Assembly: GCA_048939765.1 (NCBI GenBank)
Contig: JBHLPF010000024.1
Location: forward strand, 1 to 13,675
DNA from: Promethearchaeota archaeon
GTDB lineage: Archaea > Asgardarchaeota > Thorarchaeia > Thorarchaeales > Thorarchaeaceae
Direction of reading: 5' to 3'
DNA length: 13,675 nucleotides
A program made the position numbers and the translations under genes. The notes beneath the pieces were generated by a model, which saw only the letters and a list, made by a program, of their open reading frames with translations, ran no database searches and was not told where the DNA came from. Shown piece by piece: positions 6,538 to 13,675 of this stretch (positions within the stretch are counted from its first letter, which is position 1; every line of letters begins with the position of its first letter).

Positions 6538-6663
6538 CTCTGGAACAAATCCTTGTCCGACTCATTTAACGTTAACTGGATGACAAAACGGTATCACAGG
6601 GACACGCTTATTTGGCAAAAATGAGGGTTCGTATGTATTACTACGATTCCATGGTGCAGAAAT

Positions 6664-6960
6664 GTGTCGGAACTGAAATGTTGCAAGATATGCGGTGCAT
6701 TCTATACCTGTGATCACAAGGGGGAGTGTTGCCCAGAATGTGAGCATTACGACCCCATAGACAATCTGTGTATGGCTGGCCATCTCAAGAAGAAAGCAAT
6801 GCGAGATGCCACACTGGAAGAGAGAAATGAAGATGTCGATCCTGACACATTCCTATTTGAGGATGACGACGAAGACGAGTTCGACGATGATAGCAATTTG
6901 CCTCCAGAACGCGAACTTGAAGAGGAGGATGAATTCTTCGACGACGACGATTGGGATTGA
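6664..6960 (+). CDS. Small Zn-ribbon protein with a highly acidic C-terminal tail
   Basis: CKIC...CPEC plus additional Cys/His residues. The last ~40 aa are Asp/Glu-rich and end in FFDDDDWD. GTG start, divergent from gltX, and its stop lies 2 nt from the convergent gene's stop. Confidence 0.8.
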   Translation: MSELKCCKICGAFYTCDHKGECCPECEHYDPIDNLCMAGHLKKKAMRDATLEERNEDVDPDTFLFEDDDEDEFDDDSNLPPERELEEEDEFFDDDDWD

Positions 6961-6962
6961 TT

Positions 6963-7757
6963 CTAAGGCGCCAGCAATATAAGATTGTAGAAGTAAAGTC
7001 CCAGCAATCCTAATGCGATGAGCACAAGCAGGGTTGCGTTTCCCACTAGCCACATGCGGGCATTCTGTTTTGAGATTTTGATTGGACCCAATGGTTTCAG
7101 TCCAGTTGGAGCACTGCTGGTGACATCTACAGAACGCCAAACTATCTCCAATGGATTTGCGTCACTGGGGAATATATCCAAATAGAGATGTGAAGCGTAT
7201 CCAATTAGGAAGAGGGCTGTGATGTAATATTCAGTATGAGCTCCGATGCTCAACGAGTATGAAGACACAATGCTTTGCGCAACATTGACAAGTGTCATCA
7301 AGACAATGAGCAGGGGGAGAACAATTGAATGGAAAATTATGTTTCTGTGTCTTGCTATTCCTAGAAATGGGATGTCCCAGTCAGGCATGAGCGCGCCTGA
7401 CATCGTAATCACGGCGCCGATGAAGATCGAGATGTCCCCAATGAAAGGAATTCCCGAAGTCCATTGGTAGTAGACAGCTCCACATAAGGAACCTATGCAG
7501 AAAGTCATGAATGACATCGCTCCCACAGCGCCACGATTGCTACTTGTACGGTTGGCCATGTCCTTGTTGGGAGCTTTGAAGAACAAGATTGGGACGGCAA
7601 CAATGGTGAGGACGATACCGCCTGCAACGTAGTAGAATAGCAGATCAAAGAGAAGGCCTGAGCCTGTTAACCAGACACTGAAGGCATAGATTAGTGTGTA
7701 TAATCCTACAAAGAGAGAGAATGCGAAAATCATATGTGACAGACGGTTCATTGACAA
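6963..7757 (-). CDS. Multi-pass membrane metal-dependent hydrolase (YdjM/DUF457-like)
   Basis: About 6-7 hydrophobic segments. Motif order SH...GALMPDWD...HRNIIFHS...GYASHLYLD is the H / PDxD / HRxxxHS / SHxxxD signature. ATG at 7751 is an alternative start. Confidence 0.8.
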   Translation of the reverse strand: MSMNRLSHMIFAFSLFVGLYTLIYAFSVWLTGSGLLFDLLFYYVAGGIVLTIVAVPILFFKAPNKDMANRTSSNRGAVGAMSFMTFCIGSLCGAVYYQWTSGIPFIGDISIFIGAVITMSGALMPDWDIPFLGIARHRNIIFHSIVLPLLIVLMTLVNVAQSIVSSYSLSIGAHTEYYITALFLIGYASHLYLDIFPSDANPLEIVWRSVDVTSSAPTGLKPLGPIKISKQNARMWLVGNATLLVLIALGLLGLYFYNLILLAP

Positions 7758-7790
7758 CTCCTCAATGCCGTTGATTGACTTACGAGTGTC

Positions 7791-10094
7791 TTATTTCTTT
7801 CCCCGAAGTCCGGGAAACCAATACTGTGTACTCTTTGAATAACTCCGCTGCATTTTGGCGACGCCCTCTTCGACCAACAAATCCAGAGCGTTCTTGACAC
7901 GCTCTTCAGTCCAACCAAGCTTCACAATCGCCGCCTCAATCGTCAAACTTCCATCCCCGTCTGCTGCTAGACTCATGAGCTGCTGAGGATCATCAGTCAA
8001 TGCGACTGGAATGAATTTTACAATCACTGCTCCGCTCTCGAGTGTGGAAAGCCCTTCGATGAGACCTTCCTTAGACATATCCTTGATGATGTCTTCCGCT
8101 TCATCTGAACTAGTGGCCCAGCCCATATTGTCAAGACGCAAAAGGAGTTCGGAGAAGAGCATCACTCCACCAGACTCCCTGGAATCTTCGGCAAGTCGTA
8201 GAATGTCTCGTCTCACGCCATCAATGCGATCGTCTCGTTTGAGGAGGCCTTTGACCATGCCTCGCTTCTTTCTTGCCTGAGCAATCCAGGCTTCCGGATC
8301 ATATCCTAGCTCAGATAGCAATTCGACCAGCGCACTTCTGTATGCTGGAATCTTTAGAAGTGTAGTCCCTTGTTTCTCGAATGCTTCTCCGAGTCTTTCT
8401 CGAATTCGTTCAATTCTGTTTGCACGATCAAGAAGGACATCCAGCTCCTTATCCAATCTCTCTTCTTTTGAGAGTGGGCTAAGTACTACCGGAACGACGA
8501 TATTTCCTGGTGTATTGAGTGTGAACTCCAAATGGCGTTCACGATAGCCTTTGGCACTAACTCGTCCCTCATAATTGCTCTTTGGAAGGGAGGCTTTTAT
8601 CACTCCTTTGGAGTCTGAACTCGCGGTAAAAGCACCCAACTCGAGAAGAGCTTCAGGCACCGGATTTCCTGAATCGTCGTACACATGGAATCTAACCCTG
8701 CAAGCTGCATCTCCCGCCGGGAAGACCCTGGACTTTTTCACCCTCCTTGCTTTGACACTCTGCTCAGGAATCCCGTCGAGAATTGAGTCCAGCTCCTGCA
8801 TCATTGATCTTTTGACCAAGCCATCTGCTATGAGAGCTTGAGTCCCTTCTCGAAGCAACTCGCGAGCATGTTTTGATGCTAGAAGACTCATCTCTGTTGA
8901 GAGTTCTCTGATGTGTTTCCTCAGGGTCACATCATTGTTTGCACGACTAGCGATTATGCTTGCTATGGCACATATTGCATCTGATGACGGTATGAAGACA
9001 TCAGCAAATTCTCGCAACCGCCCAACTTTTTGCCGCTCATCCTTTAATCGAGAAGGCGGATATACCGTGATTTGTAAACGCCCTTTCTTGGAGAAACCAG
9101 CCATGATAAATGGAATTAGAAGAATTGATACTTTATCCTTTATTTCAATCCCTCTTAATGGTACAAGGTAATCATCTAGTAGCTCCTTTTGTTTTCGAAT
9201 CGAGGAGCTCATTGTGTTAATCTCATTACGCAGAAGCTCTTCCTGCTCTAGCAGCTTCTTTGAAGTGTCACGAGCGCGTCCAAGCAATTCTTCGAGCCGT
9301 GCCTCATCCCTCTCTAGCGCATCAGCTCTTGCCTTTCTTTCACGTTTCAATTCTGCGGCATCGCGTCTTTGCTCCAAACGAGAATCGAGCATTTCAATCT
9401 CTCTCTTCAAAAAGTCTATTCGTTGCTCTAGCCTACTGGTTTTATGAGATGACTCGGATTTGCTCTCATCGACAATATGCTGGATTCTCTGATGAATCAT
9501 ATCTAGCAGTCTTGAGAGAAGGTCATTGGCCGAGTCAACGGTGCTGGAAGTTTCGTAAAGAGTGTCAAACAGACGAGATGCTTCTTTGCTACTAATGGCC
9601 TCGGGTAAAACAAGACCAAATGACTCCACAACGTCATTTATTGGCCAATCCATAAGGTCTGAAATCCCATCAGCTTGCTCTCCAGATAGCAATCCAAGAA
9701 TGGTCATCTCAGTATTCCTCATCAGAGAGGCGACAAGGTCGTGTGTATCCTCAATGCACTTTTGGAGCCGTTTTGCGGTTTCAGCTGATTCAATGCATTT
9801 CTGAATGCCTGAGATATCAATCCCACTCATGGGTAACAAATTCCCAGAGCTAATTCCAAGCAGCTCAATCAAGAAGCAGAAATTGGGTATCGAAGACTGC
9901 ACGACCATTACGGGATAGTATGTCTTGAGGACAAACTCCAGTTCTTGGCCATTCCGGGCTTCAAGAGCACGCATTACCATTGATGCAAGAACATAATCCT
10001 CAGGAACAGCCTGCTCCATTGGTGGACCTCCTGCCAACTGGATACTACGGGCTGCTGTTGTCGGGATGATGAGAGTGTCCTTCTCAATGTCCAT
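7791..10094 (-). CDS. Multidomain protein: N-terminal alpha/beta + coiled coil, carboxypeptidase-regulatory-like beta-sandwich, C-terminal ESCRT-II Vps22/Vps36 (EAP30)-like tandem winged helix
   Basis: The C-terminal ~220 aa show Snf8/Vps22 hallmarks: PAYRSALVELLSELGYDP, SGGVMLFSEL, FIPVALTDD, LGWTEERVKNALDLLVEEG and YWFPGL. The beta-sandwich reads VRFHVYDDSGNPVPEA...SDSKG...SAKGY. A heptad-rich region spans about 9200-9520. GGAG SD at 10104-10107. Confidence 0.85.
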   Translation of the reverse strand: MDIEKDTLIIPTTAARSIQLAGGPPMEQAVPEDYVLASMVMRALEARNGQELEFVLKTYYPVMVVQSSIPNFCFLIELLGISSGNLLPMSGIDISGIQKCIESAETAKRLQKCIEDTHDLVASLMRNTEMTILGLLSGEQADGISDLMDWPINDVVESFGLVLPEAISSKEASRLFDTLYETSSTVDSANDLLSRLLDMIHQRIQHIVDESKSESSHKTSRLEQRIDFLKREIEMLDSRLEQRRDAAELKRERKARADALERDEARLEELLGRARDTSKKLLEQEELLRNEINTMSSSIRKQKELLDDYLVPLRGIEIKDKVSILLIPFIMAGFSKKGRLQITVYPPSRLKDERQKVGRLREFADVFIPSSDAICAIASIIASRANNDVTLRKHIRELSTEMSLLASKHARELLREGTQALIADGLVKRSMMQELDSILDGIPEQSVKARRVKKSRVFPAGDAACRVRFHVYDDSGNPVPEALLELGAFTASSDSKGVIKASLPKSNYEGRVSAKGYRERHLEFTLNTPGNIVVPVVLSPLSKEERLDKELDVLLDRANRIERIRERLGEAFEKQGTTLLKIPAYRSALVELLSELGYDPEAWIAQARKKRGMVKGLLKRDDRIDGVRRDILRLAEDSRESGGVMLFSELLLRLDNMGWATSSDEAEDIIKDMSKEGLIEGLSTLESGAVIVKFIPVALTDDPQQLMSLAADGDGSLTIEAAIVKLGWTEERVKNALDLLVEEGVAKMQRSYSKSTQYWFPGLRGKK

Positions 10095-10182
10095 TGGGGT
10101 CCACTCCTTTCGTTGACAAAGAAAGCCTTTTCATCCTTTCTAAAACCTCATCCGATAGTTTCCGGGAGCGCTTTCTCAGGAT

Positions 10183-10548
10183 TTGGAGTACAAAAAAGCA
10201 ATGAAGAGAAACAAACCAGTCCTTGATCCATATTGCATTCATTGCGGCAGTTACAAGGGTATAGGATTCTGCGAAAATGAGTCCTGTCCGGGCTACACTG
10301 CAGAGGATGGACGAAGACAGGTCAAAATGAAATCTACATGTGTCCTTTGTAGGAATGATGCAGCTCTTTCGTGTAATCGTTGCGGTAGCATGTACTGTGA
10401 TGCGCATTCAGTGAATGGTGGTAATCGCCAGTTCGAAGGACTAGATCATCATATCGGATTATGTGCAATCTGTGGGGTTTCTGTATGCGAAAATTGCTGG
10501 ATTTTGGATGAAAAGGGGAACATCCAATGCATTGAGCATTTCGAATAG
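10183..10548 (+). CDS. Multi-zinc-finger protein (B-box-like / treble-clef repeats)
   Basis: 14 Cys in 121 aa: CxxC, Cx4C, CxxC-x7-CxxC-x4-CxxH, CxxC-x4-CxxC-x10-CxxH. Start is TTG 10183 or ATG 10201. Confidence 0.8.
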   Translation: MEYKKAMKRNKPVLDPYCIHCGSYKGIGFCENESCPGYTAEDGRRQVKMKSTCVLCRNDAALSCNRCGSMYCDAHSVNGGNRQFEGLDHHIGLCAICGVSVCENCWILDEKGNIQCIEHFE

Positions 10549-10614
10549 GGCTGAGGGAGTACATAACGGTCATTCTTTTATGCAATGATTGCCTGTCCGA
10601 GATGGGAACGACAA

Positions 10615-11718
10615 ATGCCAGAAGCCGCCTTCATCGTTCAATTGGATGACTTTCACGGGTTTCTTGTGAAAAAGCGTCATCCCTCTTCTCTTGCATTGAC
10701 AGAGACCATGCTCAATCTCGTCTATTTTGAGCACCAGCAAGGAAAAGAAGAGGAAATCAGAGATTCTGAGATTGAAGGGATGAGAATTGCTTCCTTTGCC
10801 ATGGAAGCCTTCCCAGGGTGGACAGTGTGCTATGTGCTAAACGAGGATGATGTTCTGGAGGAGATCTCTCAAGACCTCAAAGGAATGGGTAGATTCATGC
10901 TGGAACTCATGGATGCCGACCCAGAATCATTGGATATTGAAGAAGTCTTGGCTAAGAGAAGCTCCATGCCCGTTTTCGATGATGAGCAAAAAGCAGCTGC
11001 TATTTACATGACACCGTCCTCGGCCCTTCTTCTGGAAAGGCTCCACACGGAAGGTGTTGAGAGCACTGCCAAACTGTCTATGTGGCTGAAGAATCAGATT
11101 CAGAGTGACAATGTGGACTTGAGGGAGGCTATTGCGCCCTTGATGGATTCAGGCATCGTGGTTGTAGAGATTGTCGGTAAGTTGGAAACAGCTTTCCTGT
11201 TGAAAGATGTGTTTCCACACAGATCTCCACCAGCTAAGTCATTCGGGGCTACTGGTGTTGCTCATCCTAATTTGATGCTCCGGTATCAAGAGTACTTGAA
11301 GAACTTCTTTTCTCCAGACCCACCAGCAAAGGGCTACAATCCCACTTTGCCTGTTACCGATCCAAATTCGCCGATCCTAGAAGATAGAGAGAAGATTGCG
11401 AGAATTATAGCAAATAGCATCAACTACGCAGTTCTAGACTGCCTCAGAAATGGGCCGCTTCGATTGGGTCAAATTGCCAGTGAGATCTCATTCCCGGATG
11501 GTGTCGTGCAGAGGGCTCTATGGGCTATGGAAGCAGAAAGAATTGTTGCAAATTTCGAGGAAGAAGGAGTTTGGGCACTAATCACGAATCCAAAAATGGA
11601 AATCTTCATGCCGGAGTATATTCTTCCGATAGTCGCAGCAAGAATTGAAGAGAAGAAGATTAGTTCAGATACAGCAAGAAGATATTTGGAGCTTCTCGTG
11701 CAGACTTGGAGTGAGTAA
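10615..11718 (+). CDS. Longin/uDENN (NPRL2-like) N-terminal domain protein with C-terminal winged-helix domains
   Basis: The ORF opens at 10585, but ATG 10615 gives MPEAAFIVQLDDFHGFLVKKRHP, the hhhxFDxxxGxxhxxxxP start typical of uDENN/NPR2 longins. WH-like segments are LLLERLHTEG...LMDSGIV and AVLDCLRNGPLRLGQIA...ALWAMEAERIV. A TATA-like TTTTAT lies at 10576-10581. Confidence 0.65.
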   Translation: MPEAAFIVQLDDFHGFLVKKRHPSSLALTETMLNLVYFEHQQGKEEEIRDSEIEGMRIASFAMEAFPGWTVCYVLNEDDVLEEISQDLKGMGRFMLELMDADPESLDIEEVLAKRSSMPVFDDEQKAAAIYMTPSSALLLERLHTEGVESTAKLSMWLKNQIQSDNVDLREAIAPLMDSGIVVVEIVGKLETAFLLKDVFPHRSPPAKSFGATGVAHPNLMLRYQEYLKNFFSPDPPAKGYNPTLPVTDPNSPILEDREKIARIIANSINYAVLDCLRNGPLRLGQIASEISFPDGVVQRALWAMEAERIVANFEEEGVWALITNPKMEIFMPEYILPIVAARIEEKKISSDTARRYLELLVQTWSE

Positions 11719-11719
11719 G

Positions 11720-12571
11720 TTGATTCGAAGTGTCTATATTTTGGGTCAAGAAGGAGACGTTCTCTACTCCAAAGAATATGCCAAGAGTGACTCAAAGGCA
11801 AGTCTGGTCGAGTTTCTTGTGAATCTTGTCCAGTTCCTTCGGAATGTCGATCTTGAAGGAAAGACGGAGTTCATGAACGTTGCTATTTCCCGAATATTCT
11901 TCGCTCAAAGAGACCTCTTCACCTTCGTCTTCATTGCCGATAAGGCAGACGATGCGGTTCAGATTGAAGACAAGATGACTCAAATGGTTGAAACCTTCAT
12001 GAAGGACTTTGCTAACCTAGCGGCTGCGAAGCAGCCCTTGGATGGATTCGATGCCAAGGTGGATGAAATTGCAGTAACCATGGTCAAAGTGGCAATCCTT
12101 GGTTTCGCGGGTGTGGGCAAGACAACGACTCTGCATTTGTTGAGAGGAGAAACACTACCGCTTGTTCATGATCCAACAATTGGCGTAAGCATCAAGCGGC
12201 TCCCTGAAGAAGTCCAGAATGCCAACATTGTCCTCTGGGACTTGGCTGGACAATCAAGGTTCAGCATCCTCTGGGCAAAGATGATTGCAAATGCCCAGGT
12301 GGTCGTTATCGTTACGGATAGCACGCTCGAGAACGTCCTGCGAAGCAAGAAACTTGTCACCCTAGTAAAGGATGAGGTTCCTGAAGCAAAGGTAATTGGA
12401 ATCGCAAACAAGCAGGACTTACCAACAGCCTTGACCCCTGAGAGAGTAGGACAGATTCTCGGGATACCAACCTATGAATTGGTTGCGATTGATATTTCAT
12501 ACAGAGACCGACTTATTCAGATAATTCGCAAAGCGATTCTTGAGGGGAAGGCTGAAACCAAGGCTGCTTGA
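11720..12571 (+). CDS. Longin-domain / Arf-like small GTPase fusion
   Basis: G1 GFAGVGKTT (12101-12127), G2 PTIG, G3 WDLAGQ and G4 NKQD. N-terminal MIRSVYILGQEGDVLYSKEY...FTFVFIAD...FMKDF...FDAKVDEI is longin-like. The TTG at 11720 has GGAGTGA (11708-11714) upstream and sits 1 nt after the upstream TAA, so it is preferred over the ORF-track start at 11645. Confidence 0.9.
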   Translation: MIRSVYILGQEGDVLYSKEYAKSDSKASLVEFLVNLVQFLRNVDLEGKTEFMNVAISRIFFAQRDLFTFVFIADKADDAVQIEDKMTQMVETFMKDFANLAAAKQPLDGFDAKVDEIAVTMVKVAILGFAGVGKTTTLHLLRGETLPLVHDPTIGVSIKRLPEEVQNANIVLWDLAGQSRFSILWAKMIANAQVVVIVTDSTLENVLRSKKLVTLVKDEVPEAKVIGIANKQDLPTALTPERVGQILGIPTYELVAIDISYRDRLIQIIRKAILEGKAETKAA

Positions 12572-12644
12572 GGGAGTTTCAGGAATCTTCTCAACATGCT
12601 CAAAGCACGTGAATTCAAGTTTTATGTGGAATATCCACCACGGC

Positions 12645-12699
12645 AAAGGTTAAGAACCATACACAAGCAGTATCGTTATAGTAGGCTACACTAAGGTGA
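12645..12699 (+). promoter_or_regulatory. Probable BRE/TATA (AAAGGTTAAGAA) and Shine-Dalgarno (AGGTGA, 12694-12699) for the 12706 gene
   Basis: An archaeal-type purine-rich BRE plus TTAA core lies about 50 nt upstream of the ATG. AGGTGA is 6 nt before ATG 12706. Confidence 0.55.
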
Positions 12700-12705
12700 C
12701 ATTTC

Positions 12706-13251
12706 ATGGCCTTTGACATAGGTGAATTAACAACAAAACTGAAAGAGATCGAAACCTACGCTATGAAGGTTGCAGAAACCAAGAAGCTTGCCGATCAGTT
12801 GGCTGAGAACCTCGCCAAGATGAAAACGGCAATAAACAAGACGATTAATGATAGCTTCACAGAAATTGCTAATCAGATTGATACCCTGAGAAAGAATATG
12901 GAGGAAATGGAGAGCGTGAAGGCGACTGCACCTGCTGTGGCCGCACCTGTTGCTGAACCCACTCCGGCTCCTGCACCAACAGCAGAACCAACGCCCACAC
13001 CCGAACCAACTCCTGCAGCAGCTCCAACTCCCGCGCCAGCAGCTGCACCACCTGCAGAACCAGTTGCAGCTGAAGGCAGTGATCAACTAGATTTTCTGCT
13101 TCAACAGAAGGACCGGCTAAAGGCTTCACTCACGGATCTTCGATTTGACTACATGAGAGGCTATATTCCAGAGGATGATTACAAATCTAAAGAAGCAGAG
13201 CTCGATTCTCAGCTCGAAGAGATTGATCGTCAGATTGCCGGTCTGAAGTAG
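12706..13251 (+). CDS. Coiled-coil protein with Pro/Ala/Thr-rich linker and C-terminal SHOCT-like helical hairpin
   Basis: N-terminal ~70 aa with heptads, a linker of APAV/EPTP repeats (about 12920-13075), and C-terminal LTDLRFDYMRGYIPEDDYKSKEAEL. Strong SD and triple stop TAG TGA TGA. Confidence 0.85.
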   Translation: MAFDIGELTTKLKEIETYAMKVAETKKLADQLAENLAKMKTAINKTINDSFTEIANQIDTLRKNMEEMESVKATAPAVAAPVAEPTPAPAPTAEPTPTPEPTPAAAPTPAPAAAPPAEPVAAEGSDQLDFLLQQKDRLKASLTDLRFDYMRGYIPEDDYKSKEAELDSQLEEIDRQIAGLK

Positions 13252-13313: not shown

Positions 13314-13408
13314 CAATTTCACATTCATATGTATGTCAATTGCCAGCAATGTGGTGAGATTGAGTTTGGAGCGAGGATTGTACCATCCAAGGCACTAAAG
13401 GATGATTC

Positions 13409-13675
13409 TCACTTATTGGATTTCTTGGTCGTCTTCTTGGCCTTTGGCTTCTCTTCGGCCTTTTTCTTAGTCTTCTTTGTAGTGGTCTTTTTAGCTGCGG
13501 ACTTGGCTTCAGCGTTCTTAGTTGACTTTTTGGCCGTGGTCTTCTTAGGTTTCTCCTCAGCCTTCTTCTTCGTGACCTTCTTCTTCGGCTTAGCCTCTTC
13601 CTCAGCCTTCTTCTTCGTGACCTTCTTCTTCGGCTTAGCCTCTTCCTCAGCCTTCTTCTTCGTGACCTTCTTCTT
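13409..13675 (-). CDS. 3' end of a protein with a Lys/Ala/Thr/Glu-rich low-complexity tail (partial)
   Basis: Manual translation gives KKKVTKKKAEEEAKP-KKKVTKKKAEEEAKP-KKKVTKKKAEEKPKKTTAKKSTKNAEAKSAAKKTTTKKTKKKAEEKPKAKKTTKKSNK* with TGA at 13409-13411. The frame is open to the window edge. Confidence 0.85.
   Translation of the reverse strand, partial: KKKVTKKKAEEEAKPKKKVTKKKAEEEAKPKKKVTKKKAEEKPKKTTAKKSTKNAEAKSAAKKTTTKKTKKKAEEKPKAKKTTKKSNK
13554..13675. repeat. 45-bp coding tandem repeat (2 identical full units plus a 32-bp partial unit)
   Basis: Units 13631-13675 and 13586-13630 are identical, and 13554-13585 is a partial copy. Each unit encodes KKKVTKKKAEEEAKP. Confidence 0.95.

Follow-up and report, generated by a model that had tools for sequence, protein, structure and literature searches.

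The question raised by this locus is whether an archaeon encodes, in one gene cluster, an ESCRT-II-like protein together with a longin-controlled GTPase. The stretch analyzed, hereafter the window (13,675 nucleotides), is the first 13.7 kb of contig C8 in a 3.37-Mb Asgard metagenome-assembled genome that is 88.5% complete. Six open reading frames (ORFs) at 6963-13251 are called A to F, with A and B on the minus strand and C to F on the plus strand (Table 1). The precursors of eukaryotic membrane traffic are being sought in Asgard archaea, and a locus combining ESCRT-II with a longin-controlled GTPase would resemble a proto-endosomal system. The original prediction, made from the sequence of the window, read the two divergent arms in this way: a Vps22-like fusion protein (B) and a membrane hydrolase (A) on one side, and a multi-zinc-finger protein (C), a longin-winged-helix protein (D), a longin-GTPase (E) and a coiled-coil/hairpin protein (F) on the other, as one co-regulated module. 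The comparisons reported here point rather to two separate functional units, which have probably been neighbors since the ancestor of the Thorarchaeia and are kept together by ordinary synteny. The first, D-E-F, would be an Asgard-wide small-GTPase operon; the second would be formed by B, a Thorarchaeia-restricted Vps22 paralog, with A downstream and C as a facultative member. As an ESCRT-II-to-GTPase module, the locus is most likely a lineage-specific juxtaposition, and the proto-endosomal reading is premature, since adjacency within one archaeal family is not evidence for shared function.

The layout of the six genes is sound: all the ORFs are present at the positions first given, with A and B divergent from C, D, E and F. 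Nearly all of the first domain assignments hold too. The divergent gap is real as well, but its length of 88 bp, counted from a TTG codon at 10183, is probably ~106 bp, because C most likely begins at ATG 10201, as the N-termini of the orthologues and an upstream GGAG motif indicate.

The relation between the arms was compared at the E-family loci of species-representative genomes. The scan gave 80 loci, 34 in Thorarchaeia (32 of which are informative) and 46 in other lineages. In 29 of the 32 informative thorarchaeial loci, the arms are adjacent, with B divergent to D, and B is absent from the other three; the order A-B / (C)-D-E-F is also kept in the 15 relatives gathered around B. As a test of the single module, synteny between the arms gives a mixed and mostly negative result: the housekeeping flanks on both sides (GluRS, ThiI, eS25, an NTP-transferase, AlaX and an M20 peptidase) are equally conserved in family f1, so that synteny within the family is uninformative on the six genes. 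No B, EAP30 (with either query), Vps25 or Vps4 was found near the E-type GTPases in the 46 loci outside Thorarchaeia.

B was found in few genomes other than those of Thorarchaeia type and has undergone repeated loss. A profile of its first 450 residues recovered B in 66 of the 76 family members. It was not found by profile in G019, G041, G042, G052, G062 and G120, which are 95-99% complete, and all six of these genomes keep D. At the syntenic site, B is cleanly missing in G019, G041 and G052; D-E-F is intact at all three inspected loci, and in G019 and G041, A and C are intact around the missing gene. The claim of a single co-regulated module is not supported by these comparisons: the flanks are equally syntenic, B is lost while D is kept, and B tracks another gene pair, X-Y, described below.

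The D-E-F arm, on the other hand, has a distribution of its own. A D-E(-F) tandem is present in all 32 informative thorarchaeial loci, and F follows E in 31 of the 34 loci, with a partial match only in the other three. In Jordarchaeia and Freyarchaeia, D, E and a small downstream protein of 106-120 aa form a tandem in six of six loci. BLASTP of F against this downstream protein returned nothing; the profile alignment (hhalign) of the F hairpin with it, however, has an E-value of 2.4e-5 and a probability of 75%. Hence, D-E-F is an old unit. In the Loki, Hel, Hermod and Hod lineages, ~20 of 39 loci have E accompanied by one or two D paralogs no more than 2 kb away, mostly in convergent orientation. 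The D family as a whole was recovered from 198 of the 301 Asgard genomes sampled, frequently with more than one paralog. In the Loki, Hermod and Hel loci, E is typically flanked by two D paralogs on the opposite strand, in contrast with the tandem D-E of Thorarchaeia, Jordarchaeia and Freyarchaeia. The E-type longin-GTPases of these lineages (L120-L154) are also longer, with a C-terminal helical extension of ~60 residues in the aligned members of family f9.

The neighbors of B differ from one family to another. In G025 (family f2), G029 (family f6) and the metagenome contig L074, where the B homologue has 778 aa, X (~200 aa) and then Y (1050-1140 aa) come after B, in the same orientation. The three genes overlap or are ~20 nucleotides apart in G025 and G029, with larger gaps on L074. 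The N-terminus of Y resembles the YbdK-type carboxylate-amine ligases (Pfam GCS2; PDB 1r8g, E-value 1.5e-4), while the X homologues of G025 and G029 have no Pfam match. The genome studied here carries X and Y as an overlapping pair on a contig other than that of B (Table 1), and the long tail of this Y has a weak match to a transglutaminase Ig-like domain. Within family f1, full-length Y is present in eight of the nine B-bearing genomes (G000, G098, G018, G024, G017, G245, G294 and G092). Among the B-less genomes of the family, Y was not found in five of seven (G041, G042, G052, G062 and G120), and the only copy found in G019, another B-less genome, is truncated and divergent. G041 is without B and Y; its congeners G245 and G294 have both. 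As B and Y are on different contigs, their joint loss would reflect a functional dependence rather than a single deletion.

The presence of B thus appears to track X-Y instead of D-E-F, a pattern drawn from gene content that is suggestive, not proven. The functional partners of B would most likely be the giant YbdK-like amide ligase Y and the gene upstream of it, X, and B may be an adaptor in or downstream of this ligase system, possibly towards ESCRT. Its association with an amide ligase of the YbdK/Pup-ligase fold is a hint of a tag-and-adaptor system distinct from ubiquitin.

An ordinary ESCRT locus, with Snf7, Vps4, Vps25 and a 257-aa EAP30 protein, is present on contig C60 of the same genome, so that the Vps22-like gene of the window is an additional copy; a scan of the window agreed with the earlier statement that the Vps25, ESCRT-III, Vps4 and ubiquitin genes lie outside it, and these were located on C60. 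The match of B to Pfam EAP30 (PF04157), 23.2 bits, is under the cut-off of 26.8, while several of its orthologues have precomputed matches to this family. An AlphaFold2 model built from 24 homologues (predicted local distance difference test score, pLDDT, 82.9) was compared with known structures. The C-terminal fold finds human VPS22 (3cuq_A, E-value 1.8e-5), 2zme_A (3.3e-5) and yeast Vps22 (1u5t_A, 5e-5) in the PDB with Foldseek, and VIA gives a Z-score of 11.2 for the Vps22 fold over residues 677-767 and 10.6 over residues 543-767. The sandwich in front of it superposes on 5aq0_B (VIA, Z 13.2) with a root-mean-square deviation of 1.4 over 78 residues; its match to Pfam PF13620, 22.8 bits, is below the cut-off. 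The fusion protein of the earlier reading does, therefore, contain a genuine Vps22/EAP30 fold, preceded by a transthyretin-like sandwich. In tblastn, the Vps22 part of B matches the Vps22 encoded beside Vps25 and Vps4 in G036, from another Asgard class, with an E-value of 6.7e-28, comparable to the 5.4e-26 of the canonical Vps22 from its own genome. Since B is as close to the G036 protein as the canonical copy is, it is a real Vps22 paralog and not a chance pair of winged helices. These matches support the conclusion that the ESCRT locus does not hold the only Vps22 of this genome and that B is a further paralog.

Asgard Vps22 corresponds to cog.002769 (Makarova et al. 2024, PMC10936438). B shares with Vps22 (SNF8, EAP30) the helical domain and the two winged helices in residues 543-767, together with clear sequence similarity to the Asgard proteins. 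Canonical Vps22 has ~250 aa; B, on the contrary, has 767 aa, with a 450-aa head that includes a long helical hairpin, and the transthyretin-like sandwich. Unlike the canonical gene, it is encoded apart from Vps25, Vps4 and ESCRT-III, and it co-varies with the YbdK-like ligase. With the entire fold retained in its C-terminal 225 residues, and a similarity to an ESCRT-locus Vps22 of another class that equals that of the canonical copy, B could be imagined as an alternative ESCRT-II subunit. It would replace or supplement the canonical Vps22 in the Vps25/ESCRT-III/Vps4 pathway of C60, its head and sandwich would supply cargo or membrane targeting, and the GTPase and ligase would be incidental neighbors. 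This is judged improbable: neither Vps25, Vps4 nor Snf7 is beside B at any locus examined, a canonical Vps22 homologue is kept in a near-complete B-less thorarchaeial genome (shown for G019), and the B-X-Y operon and the joint loss of B and Y would be left unexplained.

In the model, the head of B consists of an alpha/beta domain (residues 1-165), a 140-residue helical hairpin (169-309) and an alpha/beta-helical domain (323-441). Residues 1-450 have no Pfam match, and a profile search of the PDB with residues 1-170 gave nothing under an E-value of 0.8; the VIA searches with the whole model are dominated by the sandwich, the winged helices and generic coiled coil. An exhaustive profile search with residues 1-450 collected 197 relatives of the head. 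Most of those from outside Thorarchaeia are stand-alone archaeal proteins of 530-550 aa, aligned over nearly the whole module; in this form, the module is widespread in archaea and carries no annotation. An identity of the head with arCOG09748 (Makarova et al. 2024) was considered. The neighbors of one stand-alone homologue (P0081) and of a 720-aa form (P0101) are unrelated or unannotated genes only. B may have been assembled from this widespread 540-aa module, a beta-sandwich and a Vps22 core.

Several observations weigh against the separation of the two arms and the association of B with Y. G025, from the sister family f2, has a genome that is shuffled relative to the present one, and still a single block unites E and F with eS25, an unrelated gene, C and B. 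The sharing of B, C, E and F in spite of the shuffling could be due to selection and is the best evidence for the two-arm idea, though unrelated genes are included; in size, the block falls among the other synteny blocks of the same 19 kb. Furthermore, head relatives of ~700 aa in other Asgard families (e.g., f12) carry an N-terminal longin domain (Pfam Longin at 16-18 bits in three of them, Clat_adaptor_s at 22.6 bits in one), a weak hint, of the fusion type, that the head family and longins may cooperate. The head of E aligns with one of these proteins (22% identity over 100 residues, E-value 0.06). As for the ligase, the co-variation covers ~16 related genomes, with perhaps three or four independent loss events, and has two exceptions: G086 has B and no detected Y, and G224, a fragmented assembly, has Y (split at contig ends) and no detected B.

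Together with the divergent adjacency in 29 of the 32 informative loci, the G025 block and the longin-bearing head relatives would fit a module that is real in Thorarchaeia only: B would have been recruited beside D-E-F, sharing a bidirectional promoter, with secondary losses, and the head of B could bind the longin platform. This alternative is possible but unlikely. The housekeeping flanks are just as syntenic, and in G025, eS25 and an unrelated gene separate E-F from C-B, while the D-like gene is on another contig, beside the NTP-transferase. The six near-complete genomes keep D without B, with D-E-F confirmed at three loci, and B follows Y, not D-E-F. Finally, the longin is a promiscuous domain among Asgard proteins (Liu et al., bioRxiv 10.1101/2020.10.19.343400). 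G004, which has A-B without C-F, was set aside: it is a one-contig assembly, 77% complete, and its arrangement may be genuine or the product of a misjoin. Nothing of the C-D-E-F arm is present in this assembly, and unrelated sequence stands in place of the first ~95 residues of its B homologue (L029:8668-10908).

A reading that links all the parts is that B recognizes a mark made by the ligase of the YbdK/PafA fold (X-Y, with a vWA protein nearby) and passes the targets to the membrane or to ESCRT, with the longin/Arf-like switch gating this step. If true, ubiquitin-ESCRT sorting would have a counterpart that does without ubiquitin and is controlled by a small GTPase, but this reading is considered very improbable.

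The two remaining genes, A and C, were described earlier as a membrane hydrolase and a multi-zinc-finger protein. A matches Pfam YdjM (PF04307) over residues 88-202 with 30.4 bits, above the cut-off of 29; it is, hence, a YdjM-family membrane protein, and hydrolase is the annotation of the family only. C has about three Cys/His clusters, and its match to an ANCHR-like B-box, 23.0 bits, is below the cut-off of 27 (20.1 bits for the G025 orthologue). C is dispensable, as it is present in 21 of the 32 informative thorarchaeial loci. In the window, A starts 33 nucleotides downstream of B, and it is downstream of B in every family-f1 locus; the divergent C-B pair is retained in G025. In G052, which is 98% complete, A is broken into three frameshifted pieces (L070:8466-9237), and B, C and Y are also absent, possibly by joint decay. 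These three points would favor a membrane-anchored unit of its own, in which A recruits B and C serves as a cofactor, independently of D-E-F and X-Y. Its likelihood is the smallest of those considered here, since A and C are intact in the B-less G019 and G041, C is absent from 11 of the 32 informative loci, and A lies away from B in G025, G029 and L074.

Within the D-E-F unit, D has no match in Pfam. Its AlphaFold2 model (pLDDT 90.8) comprises a longin domain (residues 1-116), winged helices at ~120-235 and 250-335 and a C-terminal helical tail. With the full-length model, the best Foldseek matches are the NPRL3 and NPRL2 chains of GATOR1 (E-values 9.5e-5 to 7.5e-4, probability 0.96-0.99), with a TM-score of only ~0.2. 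In VIA, the longin domain is closest to NPRL2 (9o5d_D, Z 11.1), followed by a Loki roadblock-longin protein (8yqg_B, 10.9), Lst4 (9.7) and FNIP2 (9.4). The C-terminal part is made of two ArsR-like winged helices. The description as a longin-winged-helix protein is, therefore, borne out. The family has a conserved WDD..G motif (D11, G15) in the beta1-beta2 loop, which we take to recall the WD/GP motifs of longins of the GTPase-activating protein (GAP) type. Over the first 135 columns of the D-family alignment, which hold the longin domain, no Arg reaches a conservation of 70%, the equivalent positions not being mapped structurally. For want of a conserved Arg in this domain, D is not called a GAP.

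E is a clear Arf-family GTPase. Its match to Pfam Arf (PF00025) has 69.4 bits (cut-off 22.3), and a profile search of the PDB finds Arl5 (E-value 9e-21) and Arf1 (7e-20). The G domain, residues 122-272, also matches the GTP-binding structures 8oun, 8oum and 8oul, which are presumably Asgard Arf structures. The motifs GxxGVGKTT, PTIG, WDLAGQ (with the Gln of switch II) and NKQD are invariant over 15 orthologues; the G5 motif is atypical (VAID), and a TDSTLEN motif is also invariant. Assignments as SR-beta or as a Rag-type GTPase were rejected, the SRPRB and Gtr1_RagA matches being far weaker than that to Arf. In place of the amphipathic helix or myristoylated Gly of Arf, the N-terminus is a domain of ~105 residues with the topology beta-beta-alpha-beta-beta-beta-alpha, read by eye from the sequence. 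Its profile matches are weak: Clat_adaptor_s (sigma-adaptin), E-value 0.018, found in five of the 15 orthologues, and Fuz_longin_1, 0.064. A search of the ESM Atlas with residues 1-120 returned no usable match. The GTPase half of the longin-GTPase is, thus, firm, with all the G motifs, while its longin half is indicated by topology and the weak sigma-adaptin matches. The alignment of the E head with the D longin (hhalign) is not significant (probability 1.7%), so homology of the two longins is not shown by sequence.

The start codon of E is 1 nucleotide past the TAA stop of D, as read at the junction. From this spacing and the gene order, D and E are supported as a longin-protein/Arf-like GTPase pair that is translationally coupled here. 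E is an Arf-like GTPase complete in its catalytic motifs, with a putative longin-like domain replacing the N-terminal amphipathic helix. The longin of D may pair with the longin head of E, in the manner of NPRL2-NPRL3, FLCN-FNIP, C9orf72-SMCR8 or Mon1-Ccz1, and the resulting platform would set or read the nucleotide state of the G domain. A longin heterodimer beside the G domain is plausible because D is encoded with a small GTPase that bears a second longin-like domain. F, in which the coiled coil and the helical hairpin are recognized as first described, together with a Pro/Ala linker, may act as a coiled-coil adaptor or effector; its match to Pfam CdvA, 22.1 bits, is below the threshold of 30.

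Compared with NPRL2-NPRL3, FLCN-FNIP, C9orf72-SMCR8 and Mon1-Ccz1, D shares a longin closest to NPRL2, followed by winged-helix domains. Unlike in these regulators, it is the GTPase that carries the second longin, as a fusion, this GTPase is of the Arf-like and not the Rag-like kind, and D has no DEPDC5 or DENN partner. GAP-like Asgard longins have been discussed (Traffic 2025, PMC12290439); compared with the arginine-finger GAP longins, the longin of D has no conserved Arg, so that this mechanism is not indicated. Within the Asgard Arf family (AArf/ArfR), the G domain of E scores best against Arf/Arl proteins, and some AArfs bear extra N-terminal domains such as longin, according to Zhu et al. 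2025 (PMC11914678). As far as that paper and Vargova et al. (bioRxiv 10.1101/2024.02.28.582541) were searched, neither contains a gene-neighborhood analysis or an account of the fixed pairing of this orthologous group with D-family proteins and a small coiled-coil protein.

A conserved Asgard operon of a LAMTOR1-like roadblock protein, a Rab-like GTPase and a DENN protein has been reported, as have longin-GTPase fusions in Asgard archaea and NPRL2-like longin families in most thorarchaeial metagenome-assembled genomes (Liu et al. 2020/2021, bioRxiv 10.1101/2020.10.19.343400). D-E-F follows the same logic, a small GTPase encoded with a regulator of the longin/roadblock superfamily, but its families are different: a longin-fused Arf-like GTPase, a longin with two winged helices, and a coiled-coil hairpin protein. 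On the ESCRT side, Makarova et al. (2024, PMC10936438) describe Asgard multidomain fusions in which Vps28-C and the steadiness box occur together with longin and adaptin-appendage domains. These set a precedent for ESCRT-type domains and longins being linked in the evolution of Asgard archaea. The links in those fusions are within one protein and of the ESCRT-I type; here, a Vps22 core is concerned, the link is one of adjacency only, and it fails in the comparisons.

The components of the locus are, in sum, members or variants of known Asgard families. A literature search of partial coverage, with subscription papers mostly outside it, gave no account of the locus, the D-E-F operon, the 767-aa Vps22 paralog or the B-Y link. 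D-E-F, common to several Asgard classes, is a clean candidate for the first biochemistry of an archaeal longin-GTPase regulatory pair, and the Thorarchaeia bear a second, much enlarged Vps22.

Table 1. Positions of the genes, protein regions and related loci discussed (window coordinates unless a contig or locus is named).
Feature	Position	Strand	Description	Remark
A	6963..7757	-	YdjM-family multi-pass membrane protein (predicted metal-dependent hydrolase family)	Pfam PF04307
B, whole gene	7791..10094	-	767 aa	
B, residues 1-450	8745..10094	-	Head module	AlphaFold2 model
B, residues 464-538	8481..8705	-	Transthyretin-like / carboxypeptidase-regulatory beta-sandwich	VIA, weak Pfam PF13620
B, residues 543-767	7791..8468	-	Vps22/EAP30-like helical domain and two winged helices	Stop codon included
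B-C divergent intergenic region	10095..10200		GGAG motifs ahead of both start codons	
C	10201..10548	+	Small Cys/His-rich protein, about three putative zinc-binding clusters	ORF open from TTG 10183
D	10615..11718	+	NPRL2/FLCN-type longin, two winged-helix domains, C-terminal helical tail	Corrected start
E	11720..12571	+	Longin-like head and Arf-like G domain	TTG start
F	12706..13251	+	Coiled coil, Pro/Ala-rich linker, C-terminal helical hairpin	
X-Y overlapping pair, this genome	C16:3960-8097 (locus L076)		X 238 aa, Y 1146 aa	
Longin and head-module proteins, ~700 aa	L063:9327-11453	-		Also P0102, P0104, P0176

Some other genes surround the six. A 98-aa ORF on the plus strand (6664-6960 of the window), whose head is Cys-rich and whose very acidic tail has Trp-Asp as its last residues, adjoins A in nearly all thorarchaeial loci, the B-less ones included, at 47-87% identity. 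A 73-aa ORF that overlaps it on the minus strand (6562-6783) is kept in close relatives only and is probably a shadow frame. On the other side, a 241-aa eS25-like gene on the minus strand lies in the region that comprises 13329-13675 of the window and continues to C8:14372; its long Lys/Glu-rich repeat tail reaches into the end of the window, and its eS25 winged helix has a weak EAP30 match. The 194-aa ORF opposite to it on the plus strand (13329-13913), rich in Phe and Leu, looks like a shadow of the repeats. Finally, a 1276-aa protein is encoded on the minus strand 6 kb past the window (L005:6167-9997, that is, C8:19167-22997); it combines TPR repeats with a carbon-nitrogen hydrolase domain at the C-terminus and has a faint MIT-like match.

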